Assembly (NCBI GenBank): GCA_001805845.1
Contig: MHHA01000024.1
Coordinates: 1-26,416 of the forward strand
Direction: 5' to 3'
Length of the DNA: 26,416 nucleotides
DNA from: Omnitrophica WOR_2 bacterium RIFCSPLOWO2_12_FULL_46_30
Lineage (GTDB): Bacteria > Omnitrophota > Gorgyraeia > Gygaellales > UBA12090
In this document: piece by piece, positions 3,844-20,883 of the stretch
How positions within the stretch are numbered: the first letter of the stretch is position 1
How the letters are laid out: each line of letters begins with the position of its first letter
The notes under the pieces: generated by a model
What the model was told of the DNA's origin: nothing
Database searches by the model: none
What the model saw: only the letters and a program-made list of their open reading frames with translations
Translations under genes and position numbers: made by a program

Positions 3844-5233
3844 CGCTTAATTTTCCTATATCGCCTGCTCCAACCGTAAGCACCAAATCTCCTGAGCCTA
3901 CTATTGAAAGGAGCCGCTCAATTACTTTTTCTTTTTTAACATAGATAACCTCGGCCTGAGGATGTTTTTCTTTTATTTTATCACGGAGAACCTCTGAAGA
4001 TACGCCCTGAATAGGTTCTTCTGAAGCGGCGTAGATATCAGTAAGAATTATGCAATCTGCCAGAGATAAGCTTTCGGCAAATTCATGCATCAGGAATTTA
4101 GTGCGGCTAAAGCGGTGCGGCTGGAAAACTACGAGCAGCCGTTTGTGCGTAATATTTCTTGCCGCCTCAAGCGTCGCCCGCAGTTCGGTAGGATGGTGTC
4201 CGTAGTCATCAATTAGCTTAATGCCATTCACCCGGGCCTTCAGTTGAAACCTGCGTTCAGTGCCTTTAAAACTATCTAAGGCCTCTTCAATCCTCCGGGG
4301 CTTGATTCCCAATTCCAGCCCCAGAGCAATTACGGCTAAGCTGTTTGAGATATTGTGCCTGCCGGCTAAAGGCAAATGCATCCTCGCGATGAATCCATCT
4401 CTATAATAGCAATCAAATATAGAGGAAAACTCATTAAGGAGTAAATTCCGTGGGTAAAAATCGTTTTCGCCGGATAAACCAAAATAGAGCATCCGTTTTT
4501 TATATCCGCGGGTGATTGAGCGGATTGCCGGGTCATCGCCGCAGCAAAAAAGACATCCGCCGTCTCTGGTATGAGAGATAAACTTTTTATAAGCGCTCAG
4601 GATGTCCTGCCAATTCTTATAAAAATCAAGATGTTCCCGGTCAATATTGGTAACGATGGAATAGTCCGGGTGGTAATATAAAAATGTTCCGTCCGATTCA
4701 TCGGCCTCAGCCACAAAAAAATTACTCTTCCCCAGGCAGGAATTATCGCCGATATTGCGCAGGATTCCGCCTATGGCAACGGTCGGAGAAAACCCTGCCT
4801 GGAGCAGGAGATGGCCGGTTAAACCGCAGGTAGTGGTCTTACCGTGAGCGCCGCTGATTGCGATAGAGGCCTTATCCCGCATCAATTGCGCCAGGGCTTC
4901 GGCCCTTTTCAAAATCCTGAGCCCTTTTGCTTTTGCCGCCTGCAATTCCGGATTATCTTCTCTGACAGCGGATGAGTATACCACGATCTCGGCATCGCTG
5001 ATATAGGATGCATCGTGGCCCAGGCGCACCTTTATCCCGAGCGAAGATAGCTTTCCGGTAATCAGGCTTTCTTTTATATCCGAGCCGCTTACGCGGTATC
5101 CCTGTTTCATCATAATCGCAGCAATACCGCTCATGCCAATTCCGCCTATGCCGACAAAATGTATCCGTTTGGAAAGTAACGCTATGGCGCCCGGGGCATT
5201 CTCTGTAAAAAAAGTTTTTCTTTGACGCATCAT
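3803..5233 (-). CDS. murC: UDP-N-acetylmuramate--L-alanine ligase
   Basis: HFVGIGGIGMSG, GAHGKTTT, EADESDGTF, DDYGHHPTE, FQPHRFSRT motifs. Confidence 0.97.
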   Translation of the reverse strand: MMRQRKTFFTENAPGAIALLSKRIHFVGIGGIGMSGIAAIMMKQGYRVSGSDIKESLITGKLSSLGIKVRLGHDASYISDAEIVVYSSAVREDNPELQAAKAKGLRILKRAEALAQLMRDKASIAISGAHGKTTTCGLTGHLLLQAGFSPTVAIGGILRNIGDNSCLGKSNFFVAEADESDGTFLYYHPDYSIVTNIDREHLDFYKNWQDILSAYKKFISHTRDGGCLFCCGDDPAIRSITRGYKKRMLYFGLSGENDFYPRNLLLNEFSSIFDCYYRDGFIARMHLPLAGRHNISNSLAVIALGLELGIKPRRIEEALDSFKGTERRFQLKARVNGIKLIDDYGHHPTELRATLEAARNITHKRLLVVFQPHRFSRTKFLMHEFAESLSLADCIILTDIYAASEEPIQGVSSEVLRDKIKEKHPQAEVIYVKKEKVIERLLSIVGSGDLVLTVGAGDIGKLSDELAERIKSQNTF

Positions 5234-6033
5234 TCCTTTATATGCCTAAGCCAGGCCTTATTCAGGTCCTCCAAATTCTTAAAAACCCTGTAGGCATCAT
5301 TGATTGCCTGGTCAAATGTCTTACGCTCTTTCAGGCGCCGGCATAATTCTACAAAATTATCCCGGCCAAACTTATTGAGCAGATAATCCACAACGCTTAA
5401 GGCCTCTGCGTAGTAAAGCTCAACTATTTCTTTGTCATTAACGAAGTTGATATTCAGCTCGGATAATTTGTTTAAAGGCGTAAGCTTTCTCTGTTCCAGC
5501 GCCTGCAGTAACTTGGTTTTAAGGTTAAACCTTTTTACCTTTTCCTGATACATCGCCACCCCCTCATCAAGCCAGAGCGGAGCATTGTTCTCTGAACCCA
5601 CAAATTCCCGAAAAATGATGTGGCCTAATTCATGGGGAAGAAGCGACTGGAAAAATCCCTGCGCCCAGGGATAGCTCTCAATCACCTTCTCATGGTAATA
5701 GGCCGCCCCTCCTGACCAGGAAGGCTTGCCGGTAGCTTTCCGGTAATCTTCGGCATCGTTATAAATGTATATTTTTGCCCGCTTGTCCCAGAGCCAGAAA
5801 TCATAGCGGGTAAATCCTAAATTCTCAGCAATGCTTTTGTAATACTCTTCGGCCTTATCAATGGCCTGCCTGATGAACTTCTCATCCGCTTCTTTGTAAT
5901 AGACAATAAAATGCGTGCTTTTTTCGGCCTTCCATCCTTTCTCATCAAAAGCTGACGCCCGCTCAAGAAAGCAAAAGAGAATGGATAAAATAATTACCGA
6001 AAAAGGCAATGAGCTGAATTTCATTTTTATCAT
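5230..6033 (-). CDS. Secreted peptidase MA-like (gluzincin) domain protein
   Basis: Signal peptide with ASA-type cleavage site; HELGH zinc motif plus downstream WLDEGVAMY third-ligand motif; YAEALSVVDYL helix typical of the family. Confidence 0.8.
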   Translation of the reverse strand: MIKMKFSSLPFSVIILSILFCFLERASAFDEKGWKAEKSTHFIVYYKEADEKFIRQAIDKAEEYYKSIAENLGFTRYDFWLWDKRAKIYIYNDAEDYRKATGKPSWSGGAAYYHEKVIESYPWAQGFFQSLLPHELGHIIFREFVGSENNAPLWLDEGVAMYQEKVKRFNLKTKLLQALEQRKLTPLNKLSELNINFVNDKEIVELYYAEALSVVDYLLNKFGRDNFVELCRRLKERKTFDQAINDAYRVFKNLEDLNKAWLRHIKE

Positions 6034-10643: not shown

Positions 10644-11998
10644 TCTTTTATAAATATCTCCTCCAGCCTCATTGCCCGCGAGCCTTTCAGTAAAACAAAA
10701 TCTCCTTTTTTAAGCAGAGAGGCAACTATACCCCTGGCTTCATCGGCTGTCTCGCACTTATATATTACTTTGTGATTTAGGCTGCCTGCCTGCGCCGCAT
10801 CGCAGGCAATATGCGATAGCCCTCCCACGCCGATGAGCATATCAATAGAGGATTTACCTAACGCTCCCCCAACCTGCCTATGCAGCTCGCCGGCCTTTTG
10901 GCCTAATTCCAGCATATCGCCAATGATTGCAATTTTCCTCCCGCGGGTTCTCAAATTATTAAAGGCATCAATGGCATTATGCATTGATGCGGGATTTGCG
11001 TTGTAAGCATCATCAATTACGTAAAAGCCGTTTATTCTTTTCCTCTGGAAACGGGCTTGAGGAAACCGGAAATACTTTAATTTATTCATTATATCACCGG
11101 CGTCAATACCAAAAATTCTTGCCGCAGCATAGGCGCTCAGGGCATTGTAGACATTAACCTTAGAAACTGTTTTTAGCTCAATGGGATAATTTTTAATATA
11201 GAAGCTGAGCTTTCCGTTTTGCTGGAGTATTCTTCGCGCCATAAAATCGGCTTTATTGGCGATGCCAAAGGTAAAAAAGCTGACCCCGGCGCGGGATAAT
11301 TTTTCTTTGAGCAGGCTATCGTCAACGTTTAAAATTCCGATACGGGGAAAAGCCAACTCCTTAATCAATTCCCATTTCTCTCTCAGGACTCCCTTTTCAT
11401 CGCCAAAAAATTCAAGGTGCGCCGGGCCGATATTAGTAATCAGCCCTACCGCGGGTACGGCAATCCGGCAAAGCTCCCTGAGCTCGCCAAAATGATTCGT
11501 CCCTAATTCTAATACCGCGATTTCATGGCTTGTATCTAAGCGAAGCAGGGCCAGGGATAAACCAATGATATTATTCCGGGTTCCTTGATTTTTGAGAACC
11601 TTATACCTGGAACTTAACAGAGAAGCGAGCATCTCTTTGCAGGTAGTCTTGCCGTTTGTTCCGGTTATACCGATTACCGGTATAGAGAAACGTTTGCGCT
11701 GGTAAGAGGCCAGTGCGCTTAAGGCGGTTATGGTATTGCTAACCGCGATGGCATTGCGCGGAATTTTACTCCCTGCTCCTGCCGCTTTATCCCGGCAAAA
11801 ACAAATAGCTGCTGCGCCATTTTTTATTGCCTGGGGAATAAAATCGTGGCCGTCAAAACGCTCTCCTCTTATGCAGATGAATATATCGCCTTTTTTAATG
11901 GTGCGTGAATCTATAGAAACGCCGGCGATCTCCTCATCGGGATTTCCGGCAACAAGCTCACCCGCCGTTGCCTGCGATATTTCTCTTATAGTCCACAT
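10628..11998 (-). CDS. murF: UDP-MurNAc-tripeptide--D-Ala-D-Ala ligase
   Basis: SIDSRTI, GERFDGHDF, ITGTNGKTTCKE, ELGTNHFGE, DDAYNANPASM, GDMLELG, LKGSRAMRLE motifs. Confidence 0.96.
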   Translation of the reverse strand: MWTIREISQATAGELVAGNPDEEIAGVSIDSRTIKKGDIFICIRGERFDGHDFIPQAIKNGAAAICFCRDKAAGAGSKIPRNAIAVSNTITALSALASYQRKRFSIPVIGITGTNGKTTCKEMLASLLSSRYKVLKNQGTRNNIIGLSLALLRLDTSHEIAVLELGTNHFGELRELCRIAVPAVGLITNIGPAHLEFFGDEKGVLREKWELIKELAFPRIGILNVDDSLLKEKLSRAGVSFFTFGIANKADFMARRILQQNGKLSFYIKNYPIELKTVSKVNVYNALSAYAAARIFGIDAGDIMNKLKYFRFPQARFQRKRINGFYVIDDAYNANPASMHNAIDAFNNLRTRGRKIAIIGDMLELGQKAGELHRQVGGALGKSSIDMLIGVGGLSHIACDAAQAGSLNHKVIYKCETADEARGIVASLLKKGDFVLLKGSRAMRLEEIFIKETRNQ

Positions 11999-12005
11999 AT
12001 CTCTG

Positions 12006-13547
12006 TCATAATCCCATCTGACGCAAGAGTTGTCCTGTTACAATTGCATCGTCAAATTCAATCTTCCTGTCTTTGAGAATTTGGTAATCCTCATGGCCTT
12101 TTCCGGCAATAAGGATTGTGTCGCCGGCTTTAGACGCGGATAAGGCGCAGGCAATTGCCTCTTTGCGCTCTAAAATAACCCTGTAATTACCCCCGCGCAT
12201 CCTTAAGGTAATCTCATCGGCAATTTTTTGCGGCTCTTCACTGCGGGGATTATCAGAGGTGATAATAACCTTATCCGCATATTTCTGGGCGAGCTCTCCC
12301 ATCAGCGGCCTCTTAAAAGCATCGCGCTCTCCTCCGCAGCCAAAGACAACCGTCAGATTACCCCCGGAGAGTGCCTTGAGGGCCGCCAGGACATTCATCA
12401 GAGCATCAGGAGTATGTGCATAGTCAATAAAAACATTCCTTTCCTGCGCCCTGACCCTTTCCAGCCTTCCCTTGACGCCGTTAAAATTTTCTACGGCGCG
12501 GACAATCCGCGCTAATTCTATTTTCTGACTCAAGCCAAAGGCGATAGCAGCCAAGACATTAGAGATATTGTGCCTGCCGATAAGGCGGGTCTTGATTTTT
12601 GTCTTGCGTTTTTTCGTATGCAGGATAAATTCGCTTCCTGCCAAATCTAAGGCTAAATTTCTAGCTCTAATATCGCAGGCCGAATCTATTCCATAGGTAA
12701 TTAATTTCCCCCGGCCTACAGCCGTAAGCCTCCCGGCATAAGGGCTATCGGCATTGATTATGCTAAAGGCGTCTTTATTAAGCTCCCGGAAAAGCTTGGC
12801 TTTGGCAGAAAAATAGTTTTCTAAATTAAGATGGTAATCCAGATGGTCATGAGTCAGATTAGTAAATAGAGCGGCTTTAAAATCTATTGCCCTGGTCCTT
12901 TGCTGATCTAAGCCGTGCGAAGAAACCTCCATTACGCAGTAAGCGCATCCGGCTCTAACCATTTGCTTTAAGAACATTTGCAGGCCTAATGGTCCGGGCG
13001 TGGTATTCTGGGTAGGAATGATTTTCTCTTCAAAAGAATAACCCACGGTTCCGATTATACCGCAGGAAAAATGAGCCTCCTGGAGTATACTGCGGATGAG
13101 ATAGGTGATGGTGGTTTTTCCGTTTGTGCCGGTAACGCCAATCACTTTGAGCTTGCCGGAGGGATGGCCAAAAAATTCATCTGCCAGCACCGCCAGGGCA
13201 TAGCGGGTATCGGAAAAATGGATAACGGGCACTCTCGTTTTAGCCAATGCAGTCCTGCCATTAGCGCTAACCACGCACGAAGCGCCTTTTTTTATCGCCT
13301 CAGCGATAAAATCACTGCCTTTTACTTTTGTGCCATCAATAGCTACGAAAAGGGAGCCTTTTCTTACGGCTCGGGAATCGCAAGCGAGGCCTGAGATATC
13401 CACATTTTCTGAAAGTTTTTCAGGGCGCTTACTATGGCTGCGGCTAGTGGAAGCCGCACCATCGCCCTCTGGCCTATGGCTGCGGCTAGTGCCCCGCCGT
13501 AGGCGGGGTGGCTTATCTAGTCTTCTTAGCAATCTCGCTAATTGCAT
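12006..13547 (-). CDS. murE: UDP-MurNAc-dipeptide--meso-DAP ligase, with a 28-aa repeat-derived N-terminal insertion
   Basis: GVTGTNGKTT, TTPGP, MEVSSHGL, DHLDYH, DYAHTPDAL, DNPR (DAP-type), AGKGHEDYQ motifs; GAGGA RBS upstream of ATG 13547. Confidence 0.96.
   Translation of the reverse strand: MQLARLLRRLDKPPRLRRGTSRSHRPEGDGAASTSRSHSKRPEKLSENVDISGLACDSRAVRKGSLFVAIDGTKVKGSDFIAEAIKKGASCVVSANGRTALAKTRVPVIHFSDTRYALAVLADEFFGHPSGKLKVIGVTGTNGKTTITYLIRSILQEAHFSCGIIGTVGYSFEEKIIPTQNTTPGPLGLQMFLKQMVRAGCAYCVMEVSSHGLDQQRTRAIDFKAALFTNLTHDHLDYHLNLENYFSAKAKLFRELNKDAFSIINADSPYAGRLTAVGRGKLITYGIDSACDIRARNLALDLAGSEFILHTKKRKTKIKTRLIGRHNISNVLAAIAFGLSQKIELARIVRAVENFNGVKGRLERVRAQERNVFIDYAHTPDALMNVLAALKALSGGNLTVVFGCGGERDAFKRPLMGELAQKYADKVIITSDNPRSEEPQKIADEITLRMRGGNYRVILERKEAIACALSASKAGDTILIAGKGHEDYQILKDRKIEFDDAIVTGQLLRQMGL
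13427..13515. repeat. 84-bp palindromic repeat element inserted in frame in murE, flanked by GCTTA direct repeats
   Basis: 18-bp direct repeat CTATGGCTGCGGCTAGTG (13432-13449, 13474-13491); hairpins TGCGGCT/AGCCGCA and CCCCGCC-GTA-GGCGGGG (13492-13508); related copy at 22845-22910. Confidence 0.85.
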
Positions 13548-15222
13548 CGTTATTCCTCTCTAGTTTCAGGTATTTCACTACATCCTGGACAATCCGTTTA
13601 AATACCGGAGCCGCAACCACTCCGCCAAAATAATAAGGGCGCGGCTCGTCTACAGTGACCACGACTGCCACCAGCGGCTGATCAGCCGGCGCAAAACCGA
13701 TGAATGAAGCAATATACTTACTATGCGAATAGCTGCCGTCCGGCTCAATCTTCTGAGCAGTGCCGGTTTTTCCGGCAACCTTAAAATCAGAAACCCTGGC
13801 CAGCTTTCCGGTCCCTTCTTCAGTGGCTAAGACCAATATATCTCTGATGCGTTTTGCTGTTTTTGAGGAAATTACCCGCCTTACTTCTTCGGGTTTATAT
13901 TCCTTAATTATCTGGCCCCGGGTATCCCGGATTGCCTTTACAATGCTCGGCCTCATCAATATGCCGTCATTTGCAATGGCCGATATTGCGCAGGCAAGCT
14001 GCAGGGCGGTAACCCCGACCTCATGTCCTATGGGCACCGCGCCGATTGAGGTCTTAGACCAGGTTTTCGGCTCTTTTAATACGCCGGGGATTTCTCCCGG
14101 CATATCTAATCCTGATTCTCTGCCAAAACCAAAGGAGGCGGAGTAGCGATAGATAATATCCGGGCCTAAACTCTGGGCAATTTTGGTGGTGCCAATATTG
14201 CTTGACTCGCTAAAAACTTGGCTAAAGCTAAGCCAGCCGTGCGCATGGTGGTCGTGGAGAATATGATTAGCCACCCGGTAAGAACCGTTTTCACAAAAAA
14301 AGCGGTCTGATTCGTTAAACCTTCCTTCCTCCAATGCTGCCGAGGCGGTCACAATCTTGAAAACAGAACCCGGCTCAAACATATCACAGAGCGCCCGATT
14401 GCGCCGGAAATCCGCACTTGAGACTTGCGGATGATTCGCATCGTAGGTTGGCCGGTTGGCCAAAGCCAAGAGCTCTCCTGTCTTGGGATTAAGAATGATC
14501 ACCGATGCCCCTCTGGCTTTAAATGTCTTATAAACCCTCTCTAATTCCCTTTCCGCAATAAACTGAATAAATTCATCAATGGTTAAGATTAACTCAGAGC
14601 CGTCTCTGGGTAAGAGCAGATTCTGGCTGAGTAATTTATTCTGCTTGGCATCCCTAAGCACAACTGTCCAGCCGCTTGTTCCTTTCAGATACTCATCATA
14701 CTGCAGCTCTAATCCTTCTAAACCCACGTTATCCAGACCCGCAAAACCTATTGTCTGCGAGGCAAGATTTTTATCCGGATAGCTGCGCTTACTCTCGCGA
14801 ATAAATCCCAGTCCCTCAATTTTCAACTGCCTTATCTTCTCAGCCTGCTCCCAGGACAGCTTGCGGGCAATCCAGACAAATGCCTTATTACGATAGAGCC
14901 TGCCTTTCAGATAATTATAGTCTAAGCCCAGGGCCTCAACTAACTGCAGGATTGCTTTTTCTTTATTTTTGAACTGGCGGTTTGAGGCATAGAGTGAATC
15001 CGCGGGAAGGTTTACTGCGAGTGGTTTCAGATTGCGGTCGTAAATGGCGCCCCGTAAGGGCTCTAATTCAATATAGAGATTGTGCTGCTGGCTGGCTACA
15101 TCAGAAAGATAGCTGGACCTAAAGAGCTGAATATACAGGAGGCGTAAGACACAGAGGACAAAGAGGAATAAAAAAATAAAAATGACCGCTCGGAAGCGAC
15201 GGTGGCTGATGCCGGTATGCAC
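13513..15222 (-). CDS. ftsI: Class B penicillin-binding protein (FtsI/PBP3)
   Basis: N-terminal TM, RGAIYDRN, SVFK (SxxK), SSN (SxN), KTGTAQK; GTG start; no PASTA domain. Confidence 0.94.
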   Translation of the reverse strand: MHTGISHRRFRAVIFIFLFLFVLCVLRLLYIQLFRSSYLSDVASQQHNLYIELEPLRGAIYDRNLKPLAVNLPADSLYASNRQFKNKEKAILQLVEALGLDYNYLKGRLYRNKAFVWIARKLSWEQAEKIRQLKIEGLGFIRESKRSYPDKNLASQTIGFAGLDNVGLEGLELQYDEYLKGTSGWTVVLRDAKQNKLLSQNLLLPRDGSELILTIDEFIQFIAERELERVYKTFKARGASVIILNPKTGELLALANRPTYDANHPQVSSADFRRNRALCDMFEPGSVFKIVTASAALEEGRFNESDRFFCENGSYRVANHILHDHHAHGWLSFSQVFSESSNIGTTKIAQSLGPDIIYRYSASFGFGRESGLDMPGEIPGVLKEPKTWSKTSIGAVPIGHEVGVTALQLACAISAIANDGILMRPSIVKAIRDTRGQIIKEYKPEEVRRVISSKTAKRIRDILVLATEEGTGKLARVSDFKVAGKTGTAQKIEPDGSYSHSKYIASFIGFAPADQPLVAVVVTVDEPRPYYFGGVVAAPVFKRIVQDVVKYLKLERNNDAISEIAKKTR

Positions 15223-16755: not shown

Positions 16756-17205
16756 CTATGATGCAGCGCCTTCCTCCAAGAGATTCTGGGCAATCTCCTC
16801 AAAAGTAGCGCTTGAGTGAGCGTAAAAATCCTGCCAGGCCGTCCTGGACCAGAGTTCAATCCGGTTTGAAACGCCGACAATCGCCACTTCTTTTTTTATA
16901 TCGGCAAAATCCTTTAAATACTGCGGAATGATAATCCTGCCCTGGCGGTCAGGGGCCACCTCGGTAGCGCCGGAAAAATATAAGCGATTAAAGGTGCGCG
17001 CCTGCTGCTTAGTAAAAGACACGGCTTTTAGCTTGGCCTCATAGTTTTTCCACTCTTCTTCGCTAAACATAAAGAGGCACTTATCTAATCCGCGAGTCAC
17101 AAAGAATTTTTCTATATAATTATTCTTGGCGGCTTCCCTGAATTTTGCCGGCAAGATAAGTCTTCCTTTGCGGTCTATAGTATGCTGATATTCTCCGTAA
17201 AACAT
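16756..17205 (-). CDS. mraZ: Division/cell-wall cluster transcriptional repressor MraZ
   Basis: MFYGEYQHTIDRKGRLILP, TRGLDKCL, DRQGRIIIP, GVSNRIELW. Start reassigned to ATG 17205; the ORF-track start at 17256 runs through the promoter and operator. Confidence 0.95.
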   Translation of the reverse strand: MFYGEYQHTIDRKGRLILPAKFREAAKNNYIEKFFVTRGLDKCLFMFSEEEWKNYEAKLKAVSFTKQQARTFNRLYFSGATEVAPDRQGRIIIPQYLKDFADIKKEVAIVGVSNRIELWSRTAWQDFYAHSSATFEEIAQNLLEEGAAS

Positions 17206-17211
17206 TTTTAG

Positions 17212-17236
17212 CCACTTTCCTCCACTTTGAGCCACT
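17212..17236 (-). promoter_or_regulatory. MraZ-binding direct repeats (three AGTGG boxes, 10-bp period)
   Basis: Minus strand AGTGG-CTCAA-AGTGG-AGGAA-AGTGG just upstream of the mraZ ATG; matches the known GTGG/TGGG 10-bp-spaced MraZ operator architecture. Confidence 0.85.
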
Positions 17237-17247
17237 CTATGGAATAA

Positions 17248-17275
17248 AGTATACACTGCATTTGGAGCTTGTCAA
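17248..17275 (-). promoter_or_regulatory. Sigma70-type promoter of the dcw operon
   Basis: TTGACA (17275-17270), 16-bp spacer, TATACT (17253-17248). Confidence 0.75.
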
Positions 17276-17392: not shown

Positions 17393-17421
17393 TTGACACT
17401 ATAATAAATATATGTTATAGT
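17393..17421 (+). promoter_or_regulatory. Sigma70-type promoter of the Amt-kinase gene
   Basis: TTGACA (17393-17398), 17-bp spacer, TATAGT (17416-17421) with an extended -10 TG at 17413-17414. Confidence 0.8.
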
Positions 17422-17438
17422 TTAGTTGGAAATATTTC

Positions 17439-17454
17439 TGAGGCGATTTTCTTG
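17439..17454. repeat. 16-bp motif TGAGGCGATTTTCTTG, copy 2, in the Amt-kinase 5' leader
   Basis: Exact match to 1946-1961; flanked by the perfect 10-bp palindromes GAAATATTTC (17429-17438) and TTTAGCTAAA (17455-17464). Confidence 0.7.
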
Positions 17455-17472
17455 TTTAGCTAAAGCAAACTT

Positions 17473-19986
17473 ATGGATAAGCCTACCATTGATGCATTAT
17501 GGTTGTTAATAACAGCCGCCATGGTCTTTACCATGCAGGCAGGATTCGCCTGTTTGGAATCCGGCCTGAGCCGCGCCAAAAATACCATTAATGTAGCCAT
17601 AAAAAATCTGACTGATTTTGGCATCACTGCTCTGATATTCTGGGCGCTTGGTTTTGCCTTTATGTTTGGGGCAACCAAGGGCGGCCTGATCGGAAGCTCA
17701 GATTTTTTCTTCACCTTTAAGGATAGCGGTTTGCCTGCCGCCTTCTTCCTGTTTGAGCTGATGTTCTGCAGCACCTCAGCCACCATCATCTCGGGTGCGG
17801 TGGCAGAACGGATGCGCTTTCGGGCATACATTGCAGTAACCATAATTGTTTCCGCTTTAATCTATCCTGTGTTTGGCCATTGGGCCTGGAGCGGAATAGA
17901 TAAGAGGATATTGAGCGGCTGGTTAGGAAATTTAGGGTTTGTGGATTTTGCCGGCTCAACCGTAGTGCATAGCCTTGCCGGATGGGTGGCGCTTGCGGCC
18001 CTGCTCATTATGGGACCGCGCTCTGGGAGATTTCCTCCGAATCAATCTCCCAGAAAAATACAAGGCCACGATATTCCGGTTTCGGTCTTAGGAGTATTTT
18101 TACTCTGGTTTGGCTGGTTGGGATTTAACGGAGGCAGTACCTTAGAGTTAAATAATGCGGTCCCCCGCCTGCTCACCAATACCGTCCTGGCAGGAGCTTC
18201 CGGTATGCTCATTACTCTGGCATTGGGCTGGGTTCTCCAAAAAAGCCCAAGAGTAGATTTTGTGATTAACGGCTCGCTGGCAGGATGCGTGGCGATTACC
18301 GCGCCCTGCTATGTTGCTGACGCAAACTCCGCCATAGTTATCGGCGGCGTCGGCGGCATTGCGATGTTAGCCACTGATTGGCTGTTGGAGCGCCTGCGCA
18401 TTGACGATGCGGTGGGCGCAATTCCGGTGCACTTAGGCGCAGGTATATGGGGGACACTTTCCGTGGCCATATTCGGCGACGCAAAGCTCATAGCTACGGG
18501 CTTAAGCCGGCTGCAGCAATTAGCGGTTCAGACGTTAGGGGTGGCGGTATGTTTTATCTGGACCTTTGGAGTAAGCCTTATCCTTTTATGGATTCTTAAC
18601 CGCTTCCTTAGGCTGCGGGTTACGGCTGAGGAAGAATATGCCGGGCTAAATGTCTCTGAGCACGGGGCAACCACCGAACTGCTTGATTTTTTCAGAATAA
18701 TAGAGGACCAGGCAAGGACAGGCGACTTAAGCCAGAGGGCTCCTGTTGAACCATTCACCGAAGTGGGGCAGATTGCCGGGCGCTATAATAACCTGATGGA
18801 GAGCTTAGAGAATAAAAGCGAAGAATTAAAAATACTCTCAAATGCGGTTGAGCAGACTGCCGATTACGTTATTATCACCGATAAGGAAGGCACCATCAAA
18901 TATGTCAATGCATCTTTTGAGAAATTTACCGGCTATACAAAAGAGGAGGTAATCGGCAGGACGCCGCGGATCCTGAAATCAGGCAGGCACGATGAAATAT
19001 TTTACCGTATACTCTGGGAAACCATCCGCTCCGGTAAAATCTTCCGCGCCGAAATCATCAATAAGAAGAAAAACGGGGACCTCTATTATGAAGAAAAAAC
19101 CATTACGCCGATTAAAGATAGCGCCGGCAGAATTACCTATTTTGTTTCTACTGCCAAAGACATCAGCGAGCGTAAGCGGATGGAAGAAGAGCGCAGTCAG
19201 ATTCAGGAAGAATTAAAAAATGCCTACAGCAAGCTCAAAGAGACGCAGGGCCAGCTCATCCAGACCGCCAAGATGTCAACCCTGGGCCAGACCGCAGGCA
19301 GTATTGCCCATGAAATAAACAACCCTTTAACCGGCATCCTGAATAATGCCCAGTTAATGAAGATGCTTCTTGAGCAAAATAAGGAAGCTGTTCCTGATAA
19401 TTTTAGAGGACTGATAGAGACCATTGAAGAATCTGCTTTAAGATGCAAGAAGATAACCACGACTTTACTGGATTTTTCTCACGTCTCCCAGGGTTTCTTC
19501 GTGCCCACTTCGGTAAATGAAGCCATAGAAAAAGTAATTGCCCTGGTAGAATATGAAATTAAAATAGGCCGTTGCCTTATCCGGAAAGAACTCGCCAGCG
19601 ACCTGCCTAAAATCATGGGGGACTACCAGCTCCTTCAACAGGTGTTCCTTGATTTAATTTCCAATGCCAAATGGGCGATACTAAAAAAGCCGCAGAAGGA
19701 AAGCGGAGTAATTACCATAAGAACTCAATATACTCCGGAGAATAACAGAGTGAATATCTCTGTCTCTGATACAGGCGTAGGCATACCTCAAGAAAACCTC
19801 TCTAAGATTTTTGAGCCATTTTTTACCACCAAACCTGTGGGCGAGGGGACGGGCTTAGGCCTGGCTATTGTCCAGAACATCATTAAGGAGCACCGGGGCG
19901 CTATTACGGTAGATAGCCAGGTTGCCAGAGGCACGACTTTTAAAATTTCTTTTCCCGCATTATCCCACTCTTTTGAGGTTAAGTAA
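17473..19986 (+). CDS. amt: Ammonium transporter (Amt)-HAMP-like-PAS-histidine kinase fusion protein
   Basis: Amt signatures (ATIISGAVAER, DFAGSTVVH, WFGWLGFNGGS, DDAVGAIPVH, GLNVSEHG); linker GDLSQRAPVEPFTEVGQIA; PAS (ITDKEGTIKYVN...TGY...PRILKSG...DISERK); H-box SIAHEINNPL; N, G1 (DTGVGI), F (IFEPFFTTK) and G2 (GTGLGL) boxes. Confidence 0.93.
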   Translation: MDKPTIDALWLLITAAMVFTMQAGFACLESGLSRAKNTINVAIKNLTDFGITALIFWALGFAFMFGATKGGLIGSSDFFFTFKDSGLPAAFFLFELMFCSTSATIISGAVAERMRFRAYIAVTIIVSALIYPVFGHWAWSGIDKRILSGWLGNLGFVDFAGSTVVHSLAGWVALAALLIMGPRSGRFPPNQSPRKIQGHDIPVSVLGVFLLWFGWLGFNGGSTLELNNAVPRLLTNTVLAGASGMLITLALGWVLQKSPRVDFVINGSLAGCVAITAPCYVADANSAIVIGGVGGIAMLATDWLLERLRIDDAVGAIPVHLGAGIWGTLSVAIFGDAKLIATGLSRLQQLAVQTLGVAVCFIWTFGVSLILLWILNRFLRLRVTAEEEYAGLNVSEHGATTELLDFFRIIEDQARTGDLSQRAPVEPFTEVGQIAGRYNNLMESLENKSEELKILSNAVEQTADYVIITDKEGTIKYVNASFEKFTGYTKEEVIGRTPRILKSGRHDEIFYRILWETIRSGKIFRAEIINKKKNGDLYYEEKTITPIKDSAGRITYFVSTAKDISERKRMEEERSQIQEELKNAYSKLKETQGQLIQTAKMSTLGQTAGSIAHEINNPLTGILNNAQLMKMLLEQNKEAVPDNFRGLIETIEESALRCKKITTTLLDFSHVSQGFFVPTSVNEAIEKVIALVEYEIKIGRCLIRKELASDLPKIMGDYQLLQQVFLDLISNAKWAILKKPQKESGVITIRTQYTPENNRVNISVSDTGVGIPQENLSKIFEPFFTTKPVGEGTGLGLAIVQNIIKEHRGAITVDSQVARGTTFKISFPALSHSFEVK

Positions 19987-20883
19987 GCGCAGGGCATTGC
20001 GGCTGTCTTCTTTGAGCTGGATGGAGAGGAATGAAGGAGAGGGGAATTTCTTTTCGTCACGGAGCTTACGGATAAACTTAATCTCCATATCTTCTGCGTA
20101 AATATCCTTCCTGAAATTAAACAGATGCACCTCAATATTGAGCGGTTCCTCTTGAGAGTTGAAGGTAGGCCTTCTGCCGATATTGCAGATACCGTTATAT
20201 TCTTTTTCATTATATAAAACCTTTACCGCATAGACGCCCGGCTTTGGCAGGACTTCATGGTGGGGATCGATATTAGCTGTCCGATATCCCAAAATCCTGC
20301 CCCTGCTTTCGCCCTTTATCACGGTGCCTAAAACAGAGACCCTCCTTCCCAGCAATTCCTCGGCCTTCTTTAAGCTCCCGGCTCTAATTAAGCTGCGGAT
20401 ACGTTGGGAGCTTATCTTCTTTCTGCCGGCGCCTAATTCTCTTACCGGCCTTACCTGAAAACCGAGGAGCTTTCCCAAACGTTTTAACAATGCCACATCT
20501 CCCTGCGCTCTATAACCAAAACGAAAATTATCGCCTACAAAAACATAGAGCGGATGAAAGAATTTTACTAAGGTATCCCGGATAAAACTCTCAGGCGGGC
20601 TCTTCGCAAATTGTTGGCTAAAACGAATAACCAAGCAGGCGCTGACGCCAAGCTCTGCGATAACCTTGAGCCTGTGCGCGAGCGAGATAAGATAAGGCTG
20701 CCCTTTAGGATGAGGGTCAAAGGTGATGGCTACTGTTTTTTTATGCAGGGCCCTGGCAGCGCGGACAGCTCTTTCAATTAAATAACGGTGCCCTCTATGC
20801 ATACCGTCAAAGACACCAATCATGACGATGGTATCTTTAAATTTTTCCTTTAGATTAGATAGTCCGAATATCGTCTTCATCAA
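19960..20883 (-). CDS. ribF: Bifunctional riboflavin kinase/FAD synthetase
   Basis: GVFDGMHRGH, TFDPHP, VGDNFRFG, ISSQRIRSLI, GRILGYRTANI, NIGRRPTF, EVHL, LRDEKKF motifs. Confidence 0.96.
   Translation of the reverse strand: MMKTIFGLSNLKEKFKDTIVMIGVFDGMHRGHRYLIERAVRAARALHKKTVAITFDPHPKGQPYLISLAHRLKVIAELGVSACLVIRFSQQFAKSPPESFIRDTLVKFFHPLYVFVGDNFRFGYRAQGDVALLKRLGKLLGFQVRPVRELGAGRKKISSQRIRSLIRAGSLKKAEELLGRRVSVLGTVIKGESRGRILGYRTANIDPHHEVLPKPGVYAVKVLYNEKEYNGICNIGRRPTFNSQEEPLNIEVHLFNFRKDIYAEDMEIKFIRKLRDEKKFPSPSFLSIQLKEDSRNALRLLNLKRVG

Follow-up and report, generated by a model that had tools for sequence, protein, structure and literature searches.

A probable ammonium receptor kinase joining an Amt-like module, a PAS domain and a histidine kinase in an Omnitrophota bacterium

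What is the function of a protein in which an ammonium channel fold continues, in a single chain, into a sensor histidine kinase: does it move ammonium, sense it, or both? This question is raised by a gene of Omnitrophica WOR_2 bacterium RIFCSPLOWO2_12_FULL_46_30, an uncultured groundwater bacterium with a small genome (Omnitrophota). We analysed a 26,416-nucleotide stretch of contig MHHA01000024.1 (assembly GCA_001805845.1), hereafter the window, in which a single unbroken open reading frame (ORF) at 17473-19986 on the plus strand encodes a product of 837 amino acids. From the order of the domains, the conserved residues, the relatives, the synteny and the integrity of the assembly, we conclude with a probability of about 0.75 that the product is an ammonium receptor histidine kinase in the membrane, belonging to the AmR class, which includes Ks-Amt5 and Sd-Amt1.

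The Pfam profiles matched in the order Ammonium_transp (residues 9-400, E-value 1e-119), PAS (456-566, 1e-16), HisKA (605-673, 9e-13) and HATPase_c (716-829, 3e-25). Together with the ORF and the relatives, these matches delimit an Amt-like ammonium receptor module (residues 1-400, 17473-18672), a HAMP-like linker (401-446, 18673-18810), a PAS domain (447-575, 18811-19197), a signalling helix with the DHp (HisKA) domain (19198-19491) and a catalytic ATP-binding domain (HATPase_c, 19618-19959), all on the plus strand. A preliminary description of the window, made from its letters alone, had proposed one ORF joining Amt, a HAMP-like linker, PAS and a complete HisKA/HATPase kinase, and the ORF and the Pfam order confirm this.

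We examined the Amt module by profiles, an alignment with solved relatives and a residue check. The whole 11-helix core of the Amt/Mep/Rh family is present above the curated cut-offs, with 400.3 bits for PF00909 (cut-off 23.2; profile positions 1-397 of 399) and 418.1 bits for TIGR00836, the NCBIfam amt model (cut-off 343.3). The canonical pore residues are all intact: W139 of the HWAW motif and S222 of FNGGS at the recruitment site, F98 and F218 in the Phe gate, and the twin-His pair H166 (codon 17968) and H320 (codon 18430), each exactly as first described. The best solved match of the module was Sd-Amt1 (8qj3, E-value 1e-122), aligned over residues 8-459 and thus through the HAMP region. 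Ks-Amt5 (6eu6, 1e-99) was second among characterised receptors, and transporters matched more weakly (Af-Amt1, 1e-55; E. coli AmtB, 1e-35).

In Sd-Amt1, F25 and E29 open a side pocket below the twin-His pair, a first ammonium is bound by E29, N45, T104 and S107 and a second by N45, D48 and T104, K44 and Y119 form the switch, and N269 narrows the exit (PMC11152129). All ligands of these two sites, N1 and N2, are present at the aligned positions of the window protein (E29, codon 17557; N45; D48, codon 17614; T104; S107), together with F25, the switch pair K44/Y119 and the exit plug N266. Across 83 relatives most of these residues are invariant or nearly so, with E29, K44, N45, D48 and T104 fully invariant; Af-Amt1 carries other residues at the E29 and D48 positions. 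A cytoplasmic transducer composed of the HAMP-like linker, PAS, HisKA and HATPase_c is fused C-terminally in the same ORF. Because the full receptor signature of Sd-Amt1 and Ks-Amt5 is present, "receptor kinase" is a better term than "transceptor", the label used in the preliminary description. Its sequence signature (E29, K44, N45, D48, T104, S107, Y119 and N266) makes it more probable that the Amt module binds ammonium as a receptor than that it transports it as a transceptor.

The kinase half is complete. HisKA scored 48.6 bits (cut-off 26.9) and HATPase_c 89.3 bits (cut-off 26.4), and all boxes of a class I (HisKA) kinase are present: the phospho-acceptor H613 (codon 19309) in HEINNPL, N731, the DTGVG motif from D766 to G770, FEPFFTTK and GTGLGL. 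Between the Amt module and the PAS domain, residues 401-446 follow the pattern GDLxxR...E(V/I)GxIAxxYNxLM and align with the Sd-Amt1 stretch up to residue 459. The Pfam HAMP profile matches 14 of 22 family linkers, every one below threshold, and the HAMP label given by the Sd-Amt1 authors comes from an AlphaFold2 model. "HAMP-like" is the right wording for these residues.

The PAS domain behaves as a removable part. In the closest relatives, of which five are metagenomic and one is from a genome in the same family, residues 447-575 are missing as a clean indel of 129 amino acids, while identity to the window protein is 67-74% over Amt, 72-80% over the linker and 54-60% over the kinase. In a tree of Amt plus linker, the three proteins with a PAS group together with full support, within a larger and likewise fully supported set of eight; the other five have no PAS. 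Within this eight-sequence clade the tree is compatible with one gain of the PAS as well as with one to three losses, and it does not establish an independent gain. At 57% identity, the window PAS resembles a PAS from a non-Amt kinase of a related genome; the value is 48-50% against the second PAS of Amt kinases with several PAS domains, and about 30% against the PAS found at this position in the cyanobacterial group. In these alignments, the PAS is a module added onto an Amt-HAMP-kinase core.

The preliminary description had also likened this PAS to the flavin-binding domains of NifL and Aer. Over residues 466-579 the best solved match was the FAD (flavin adenine dinucleotide)-binding MmoS PAS-A (3ewk, domain E-value 5e-21), and NifL PAS1 (2gj3, 2e-17) also matched strongly; the cofactor-free MmoS PAS-B was far weaker (1e-08), many LOV domains also matched, and the NifL model TIGR02938 aligned over 454-575. 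We took the flavin-pocket positions of MmoS and Aer from PMC9668731 and checked the 3ewk numbering against our alignment. The Thr, Gly, Trp and Asn that contact FAD in these domains (PMC9668731) are kept: T103, G107, the adenine-stacking Trp and N164 of MmoS correspond to T469, G473, W515 and N530. The two positions next to flavin N5 are replaced, with Pro498 at MmoS His132 (Aer His53; the LOV Cys position) and Ala561 at MmoS Arg195 (the LOV Gln position), and by alignment neither the His/Arg pair of MmoS nor the Cys/Gln pair of LOV domains is found in this PAS. R499 aligns with the Arg directly after the LOV Cys; this Arg binds the flavin phosphate. Heme binding as in FixL was considered and set aside, since His506 is not diagnostic: flavin PAS domains share it at the same position. 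The likeness to NifL-type domains therefore stands for the fold and the flavin-contact scaffold, whereas the residues that read the flavin state are replaced. Judged from these residues, flavin binding by this PAS is possible but doubtful.

If the kinase is intact, which protein receives its phosphoryl group? The window's contig contains no gene for a receiver, a P-II protein or glutamine synthetase, so the absence of a response regulator, GlnK and glutamine synthetase nearby, as first reported, holds there. Elsewhere the genome encodes 18 receiver domains, several of them without an adjacent kinase, including one of 120 amino acids among housekeeping genes (contig C39) and, on the minus strand of contig C9 with no kinase adjoining, a response regulator of the form REC-PAS-HD_5 (HD-GYP-like); others lie on contigs C50, C77, C30, C16 and C71. 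The C9 gene, a candidate output, is the only long receiver ORF without a neighbouring kinase, and it is not a sigma-54 activator; we thus rejected an NtrC-type partner. We also searched the genome with the three receivers that flank PAS-less relatives. Two of these relatives each have a divergent single-domain receiver beside them; these two receivers share 79% identity, and among 41 related genomes an equally close receiver occurs only in the one that carries the fusion. The convergent receiver of a PAS-less relative on a metagenome contig was discarded as a partner, since its 78% orthologue (C68:3254-3688) ends an operon of a kinase, a REC protein and a REC gene. This convergent receiver probably belongs to the neighbouring kinase operon and not to the Amt kinase.

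The host genome does have ordinary nitrogen genes. The bin comprises 866 kb in 79 contigs, with a completeness of 77%, and genomes of its order span 1.0-2.5 Mb. MurC of the window shares 90% identity with MurC of an aquifer bacterium labelled "Omnitrophica WOR_2", and its other matches are likewise from Omnitrophota. A canonical cluster on another contig (C7, about 11500-15200) holds a P-II gene (glnB), amt (444 amino acids), a second P-II gene (glnK) and glnA; the Amt of this cluster and the receptor module share 39% identity. Because this ordinary cluster exists, uptake and sensing are probably split between two Amt paralogues. Upstream of the C7 cluster are genes for a GerE-type regulator and an HD-domain protein.

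We then considered whether the fusion is real. The preliminary description had named a chimeric assembly at a domain junction as the finding that would refute it. For three runs, each from a different study (groundwater and soil metagenomes), Logan contigs (2735, 2735 and 2281 bases) span all junctions; over 17460-20100 (the third to 19740) they differ from the window at 6-7 bases and show neither joints nor indels. A chimeric assembly is thereby excluded. The gene order mraZ, kinase gene, ribF, with a near-identical protein, is present in one ENA and one Logan assembly, and two orthologues of 88% and 87% identity share the full architecture, the former with the same seven downstream genes, including ribF-truB-nrnA-rbfA. 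The contigs of all three runs have in common four base differences within 15 bases of the PAS (18909-18923, codons 479-484), which correspond to the two residues at which the near-identical database protein differs; strains thus vary here, and the variation is concentrated in the PAS.

In a same-family genome (G003, contig C27), ribF, mraZ and rsmH stand one directly after another on one strand, with 300 bases of spacer, and its mraZ and rsmH are 82% and 69% identical to those of the window. In the window lineage the kinase gene fills the ribF-mraZ spacer on the opposite strand. The kinase gene is thus a lineage-specific insertion into an older ribF-mraZ junction, as judged from this same-family genome; in the same-genus genome (G001) the contig ends inside ribF. 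The GC (guanine plus cytosine) content gives no sign of recent foreign origin.

With these results, how well does an ammonium receptor kinase fit compared with a protein that also transports? In a true transceptor, the Amt module would conduct ammonium at a useful rate and the kinase would report flux instead of pocket occupancy. The six intact pore residues are what such a protein would need, and some conduction by the window protein may occur, since a complete transport block is not claimed even for Sd-Amt1 by its authors (PMC11152129). Yet the module holds the complete N1/N2 pocket and the exit Asn of non-transporting receptors, no P-II gene accompanies the kinase gene, a canonical amt exists separately in the genome together with two P-II genes and glnA, and both characterised relatives gave binding-type rather than transport-type currents (PMC5764959, PMC11152129). 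We consider a transceptor unlikely. Several points weigh against the receptor kinase itself. Receptor function is deduced from about fifteen aligned residues; the linker scanned alone reached 19.4 bits against the Pfam HAMP (PF00672) cut-off of 25, over profile positions 21-52 of 53; in the 77%-complete genome we found no orthologue of the divergent receiver of the relatives, the best matches being 34-40% identical; and we found no paper on any PAS-containing Amt kinase, Ks-Amt5 and Sd-Amt1 being the only members described in the literature searched.

Two further explanations concern the PAS and the gene as a whole. A dual-input sensor, in which the PAS binds flavin (FAD, as in MmoS PAS-A, NifL and Aer) and the kinase answers both ammonium and redox state, would account for the ranking of MmoS PAS-A far above the cofactor-free PAS-B, for the NifL and LOV matches and the TIGR02938 alignment, and for the conserved T469, G473, W515 and N530 with R499 in register. 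It has to accommodate the loss of both N5 sensing residues and the fact that the closest relatives work without any PAS. The adjacent ribF, whose product makes flavin cofactors, lends it little, because the kinase gene was inserted into an old ribF-mraZ junction and the proximity is most likely coincidence. We hold a dual-input sensor to be a tentative possibility, with the odds against it. That the gene is an artefact or a relic, either a chimera of amt and PAS-kinase genes or a decaying, functionless gene, is very improbable. The source is a fragmented metagenome bin and the gene is a lone opposite-strand insertion between two conserved operons, which speaks for this reading; however, three runs of three studies cross every junction without joints, two further assemblies and two orthologues share the architecture, stops and frameshifts are absent, all catalytic and ligand residues are intact, and a near-consensus promoter-like site lies upstream. 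Taken together, we favour the receptor histidine kinase.

The promoter-like site is of the sigma-70 type (17393-17421, plus strand), with TTGACA and TATAGT separated by 17 nt, a TG before the -10 element and a distance of 52 nt to the start codon. It is predicted from a consensus match at 11 of 12 positions. The leader matched no Rfam family, and inspection of its sequence by eye revealed no apparent sigma-54 type promoter. A 16-nt word of the leader (17440-17455) recurs with one mismatch at 1947-1962, upstream of an ORF on the ftsQ side, where chance would predict no recurrence. In three runs the assembly graph forks into two short variants at about 17396-17489, with a summed depth about 2.5 times that of the flanks. 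The forked region and the recurring word suggest a short repeated or polymorphic element.

Both neighbours of the kinase gene lie on the minus strand. The divergent neighbour is mraZ (16756-17256; likely true start M18, at about 17205), the first gene of the dcw cluster, which continues with rsmH, ftsI, murE, murF, mraY, murD, ftsW, murG and murC. A gene for a Peptidase_MA_2 protein is located within this cluster between murG and murC (5230-6033). The convergent neighbour is ribF, for FAD synthetase/riboflavin kinase (19960-20883), and the 3' ends of ribF and the kinase gene overlap by 27 bases (19960-19986), an overlap kept in the 88% orthologue. Beyond ribF are truB and genes for a DHH phosphoesterase, rbfA, a CCA-adding enzyme and an xerC-like recombinase.

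How unusual is such a protein? About nine-tenths of the best 120 database relatives combine Amt, PAS and kinase domains. They come mostly from cyanobacteria and planctomycetes, and the named carriers include Lyngbya, Planktothrix, Spirulina, Leptolyngbya, planctomycetes, Nitrospinota and an anammox bacterium, among others. We examined 39 loci in named genomes whose Amt ORF also holds a related kinase: 10 have a fused receiver, 12 a receiver gene within 2.5 kb and 17 neither. Since most of the best relatives share these domains and 17 of the 39 loci are receiver-free, both the architecture and the orphan state are ordinary for the family. Two earlier claims thereby lose some of their weight: the gene is an orphan in that no receiver lies nearby, but this is a common condition, and the statement that no characterised example was known agrees with our literature search on PAS-containing members, but databases hold very many proteins of exactly this architecture. 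Few Omnitrophota have the receptor type; a match at an E-value of 1e-115 or better occurs in 5 of 401 sampled genomes, including that of the window, and all five are long fusion ORFs. We conclude that the gene is a well-founded, though rather ordinary, new example of a class of receptors that abound in databases and have hardly been studied.

The mechanism that we propose is inferred by homology; this includes the idea that ammonium is bound but not transported, the direction in which the kinase is controlled and the identity of the partner. A trimeric Amt-like module would select NH4+ through the normal recruitment site, Phe gate and twin-His pair, and two cations would then be diverted into the lateral pocket (E29, N45, D48, T104 and S107) instead of being passed on. 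Filling of the pocket would flip the K44/Y119 switch at the cytoplasmic face, and the change would run through the two helices of the HAMP-like linker and the PAS into the DHp helices, altering autophosphorylation of His613 by the complete ATP-binding domain. For Sd-Amt1, a break of symmetry from trimer to dimer has been proposed. The phosphoryl group would pass to a receiver from another locus, most likely one of a single domain like CheY, as in the closest PAS-less relatives. Ammonium uptake would probably be left to the canonical amt, flanked by its two P-II genes and followed by glnA. The PAS may be either a transmission or dimerisation module or a second input. A more speculative idea, which we think rather improbable, is that the PAS, gained or kept in this lineage, binds flavin or another small ligand and makes the kinase a two-input gate that phosphorylates its partner only if external ammonium and a particular redox or metabolic state are present together. 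If true, this would be the first signal integration inside an Amt-derived receptor.

The protein is a reasonable candidate for study that would not surprise a specialist. The natural pair with and without the PAS could reveal what the domain adds to transmembrane ammonium signalling, and the conserved single-domain receiver of the relatives could point to the missing partner. Cultured cyanobacteria and planctomycetes, in which the architecture is abundant, are better experimental systems than the uncultured groundwater host.

Among known proteins, those with the same domain order are the Amt-PAS-HisKA-HATPase_c proteins of Lyngbya PCC 8106, Planktothrix, Spirulina, Leptolyngbya PCC 6406, planctomycetes and others, which are annotated "ammonium transporter". 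They have about 850-900 amino acids, 41-48% full-length identity to the window protein (about 30% in the PAS and about 34% in the kinase) and often no adjacent receiver; the window protein is set apart from them in its strongly supported eight-sequence clade. For the PAS, the nearest known systems are MmoS PAS-A and NifL PAS1, both FAD-binding redox sensors, which share with it the Thr, Gly, Trp and Asn of the pocket; unlike MmoS PAS-A, it has Pro498 and Ala561 for the His and Arg near flavin N5.

Ks-Amt5 and Sd-Amt1 are the only Amt-derived ammonium receptors characterised so far, and the comparison drawn in the preliminary description with Ks-Amt5 as an Amt-kinase sensor and with Amt-diguanylate cyclase fusions is supported. 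Ks-Amt5 (kuste_3690 of Ca. Kuenenia stuttgartiensis; 6eu6; PMC5764959) is likewise an Amt-like receptor fused to a histidine kinase and likewise has no identified cognate regulator, and E31 and D50 of its two-ammonium site align with E29 and D48 of the window protein. Unlike the window protein, it is described without HAMP and PAS, the kinase being coupled directly. Its switch is Arg/Asn (PMC11152129) in place of Lys/Tyr, it has Thr where the window protein and Sd-Amt1 have the exit Asn, and its Amt module is less similar to that of the window than is the module of Sd-Amt1. Sd-Amt1 of Shewanella denitrificans (Amt-HAMP-GGDEF; PDB 8qj3, 8qj4 and 8qpf; PMC11152129), the best solved match, has F25, E29, K44, N45, D48, T104, S107 and Y119 at identically numbered positions, and its N269 and H169/H323 align with N266 and H166/H320. 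Its output is a diguanylate cyclase, whereas that of the window protein is PAS plus HisKA/HATPase_c; the window protein would therefore signal by phosphotransfer and not by synthesis of cyclic di-GMP. The window protein thus unites HAMP coupling of the Sd-Amt1 type with kinase output of the Ks-Amt5 type, and adds a PAS domain.

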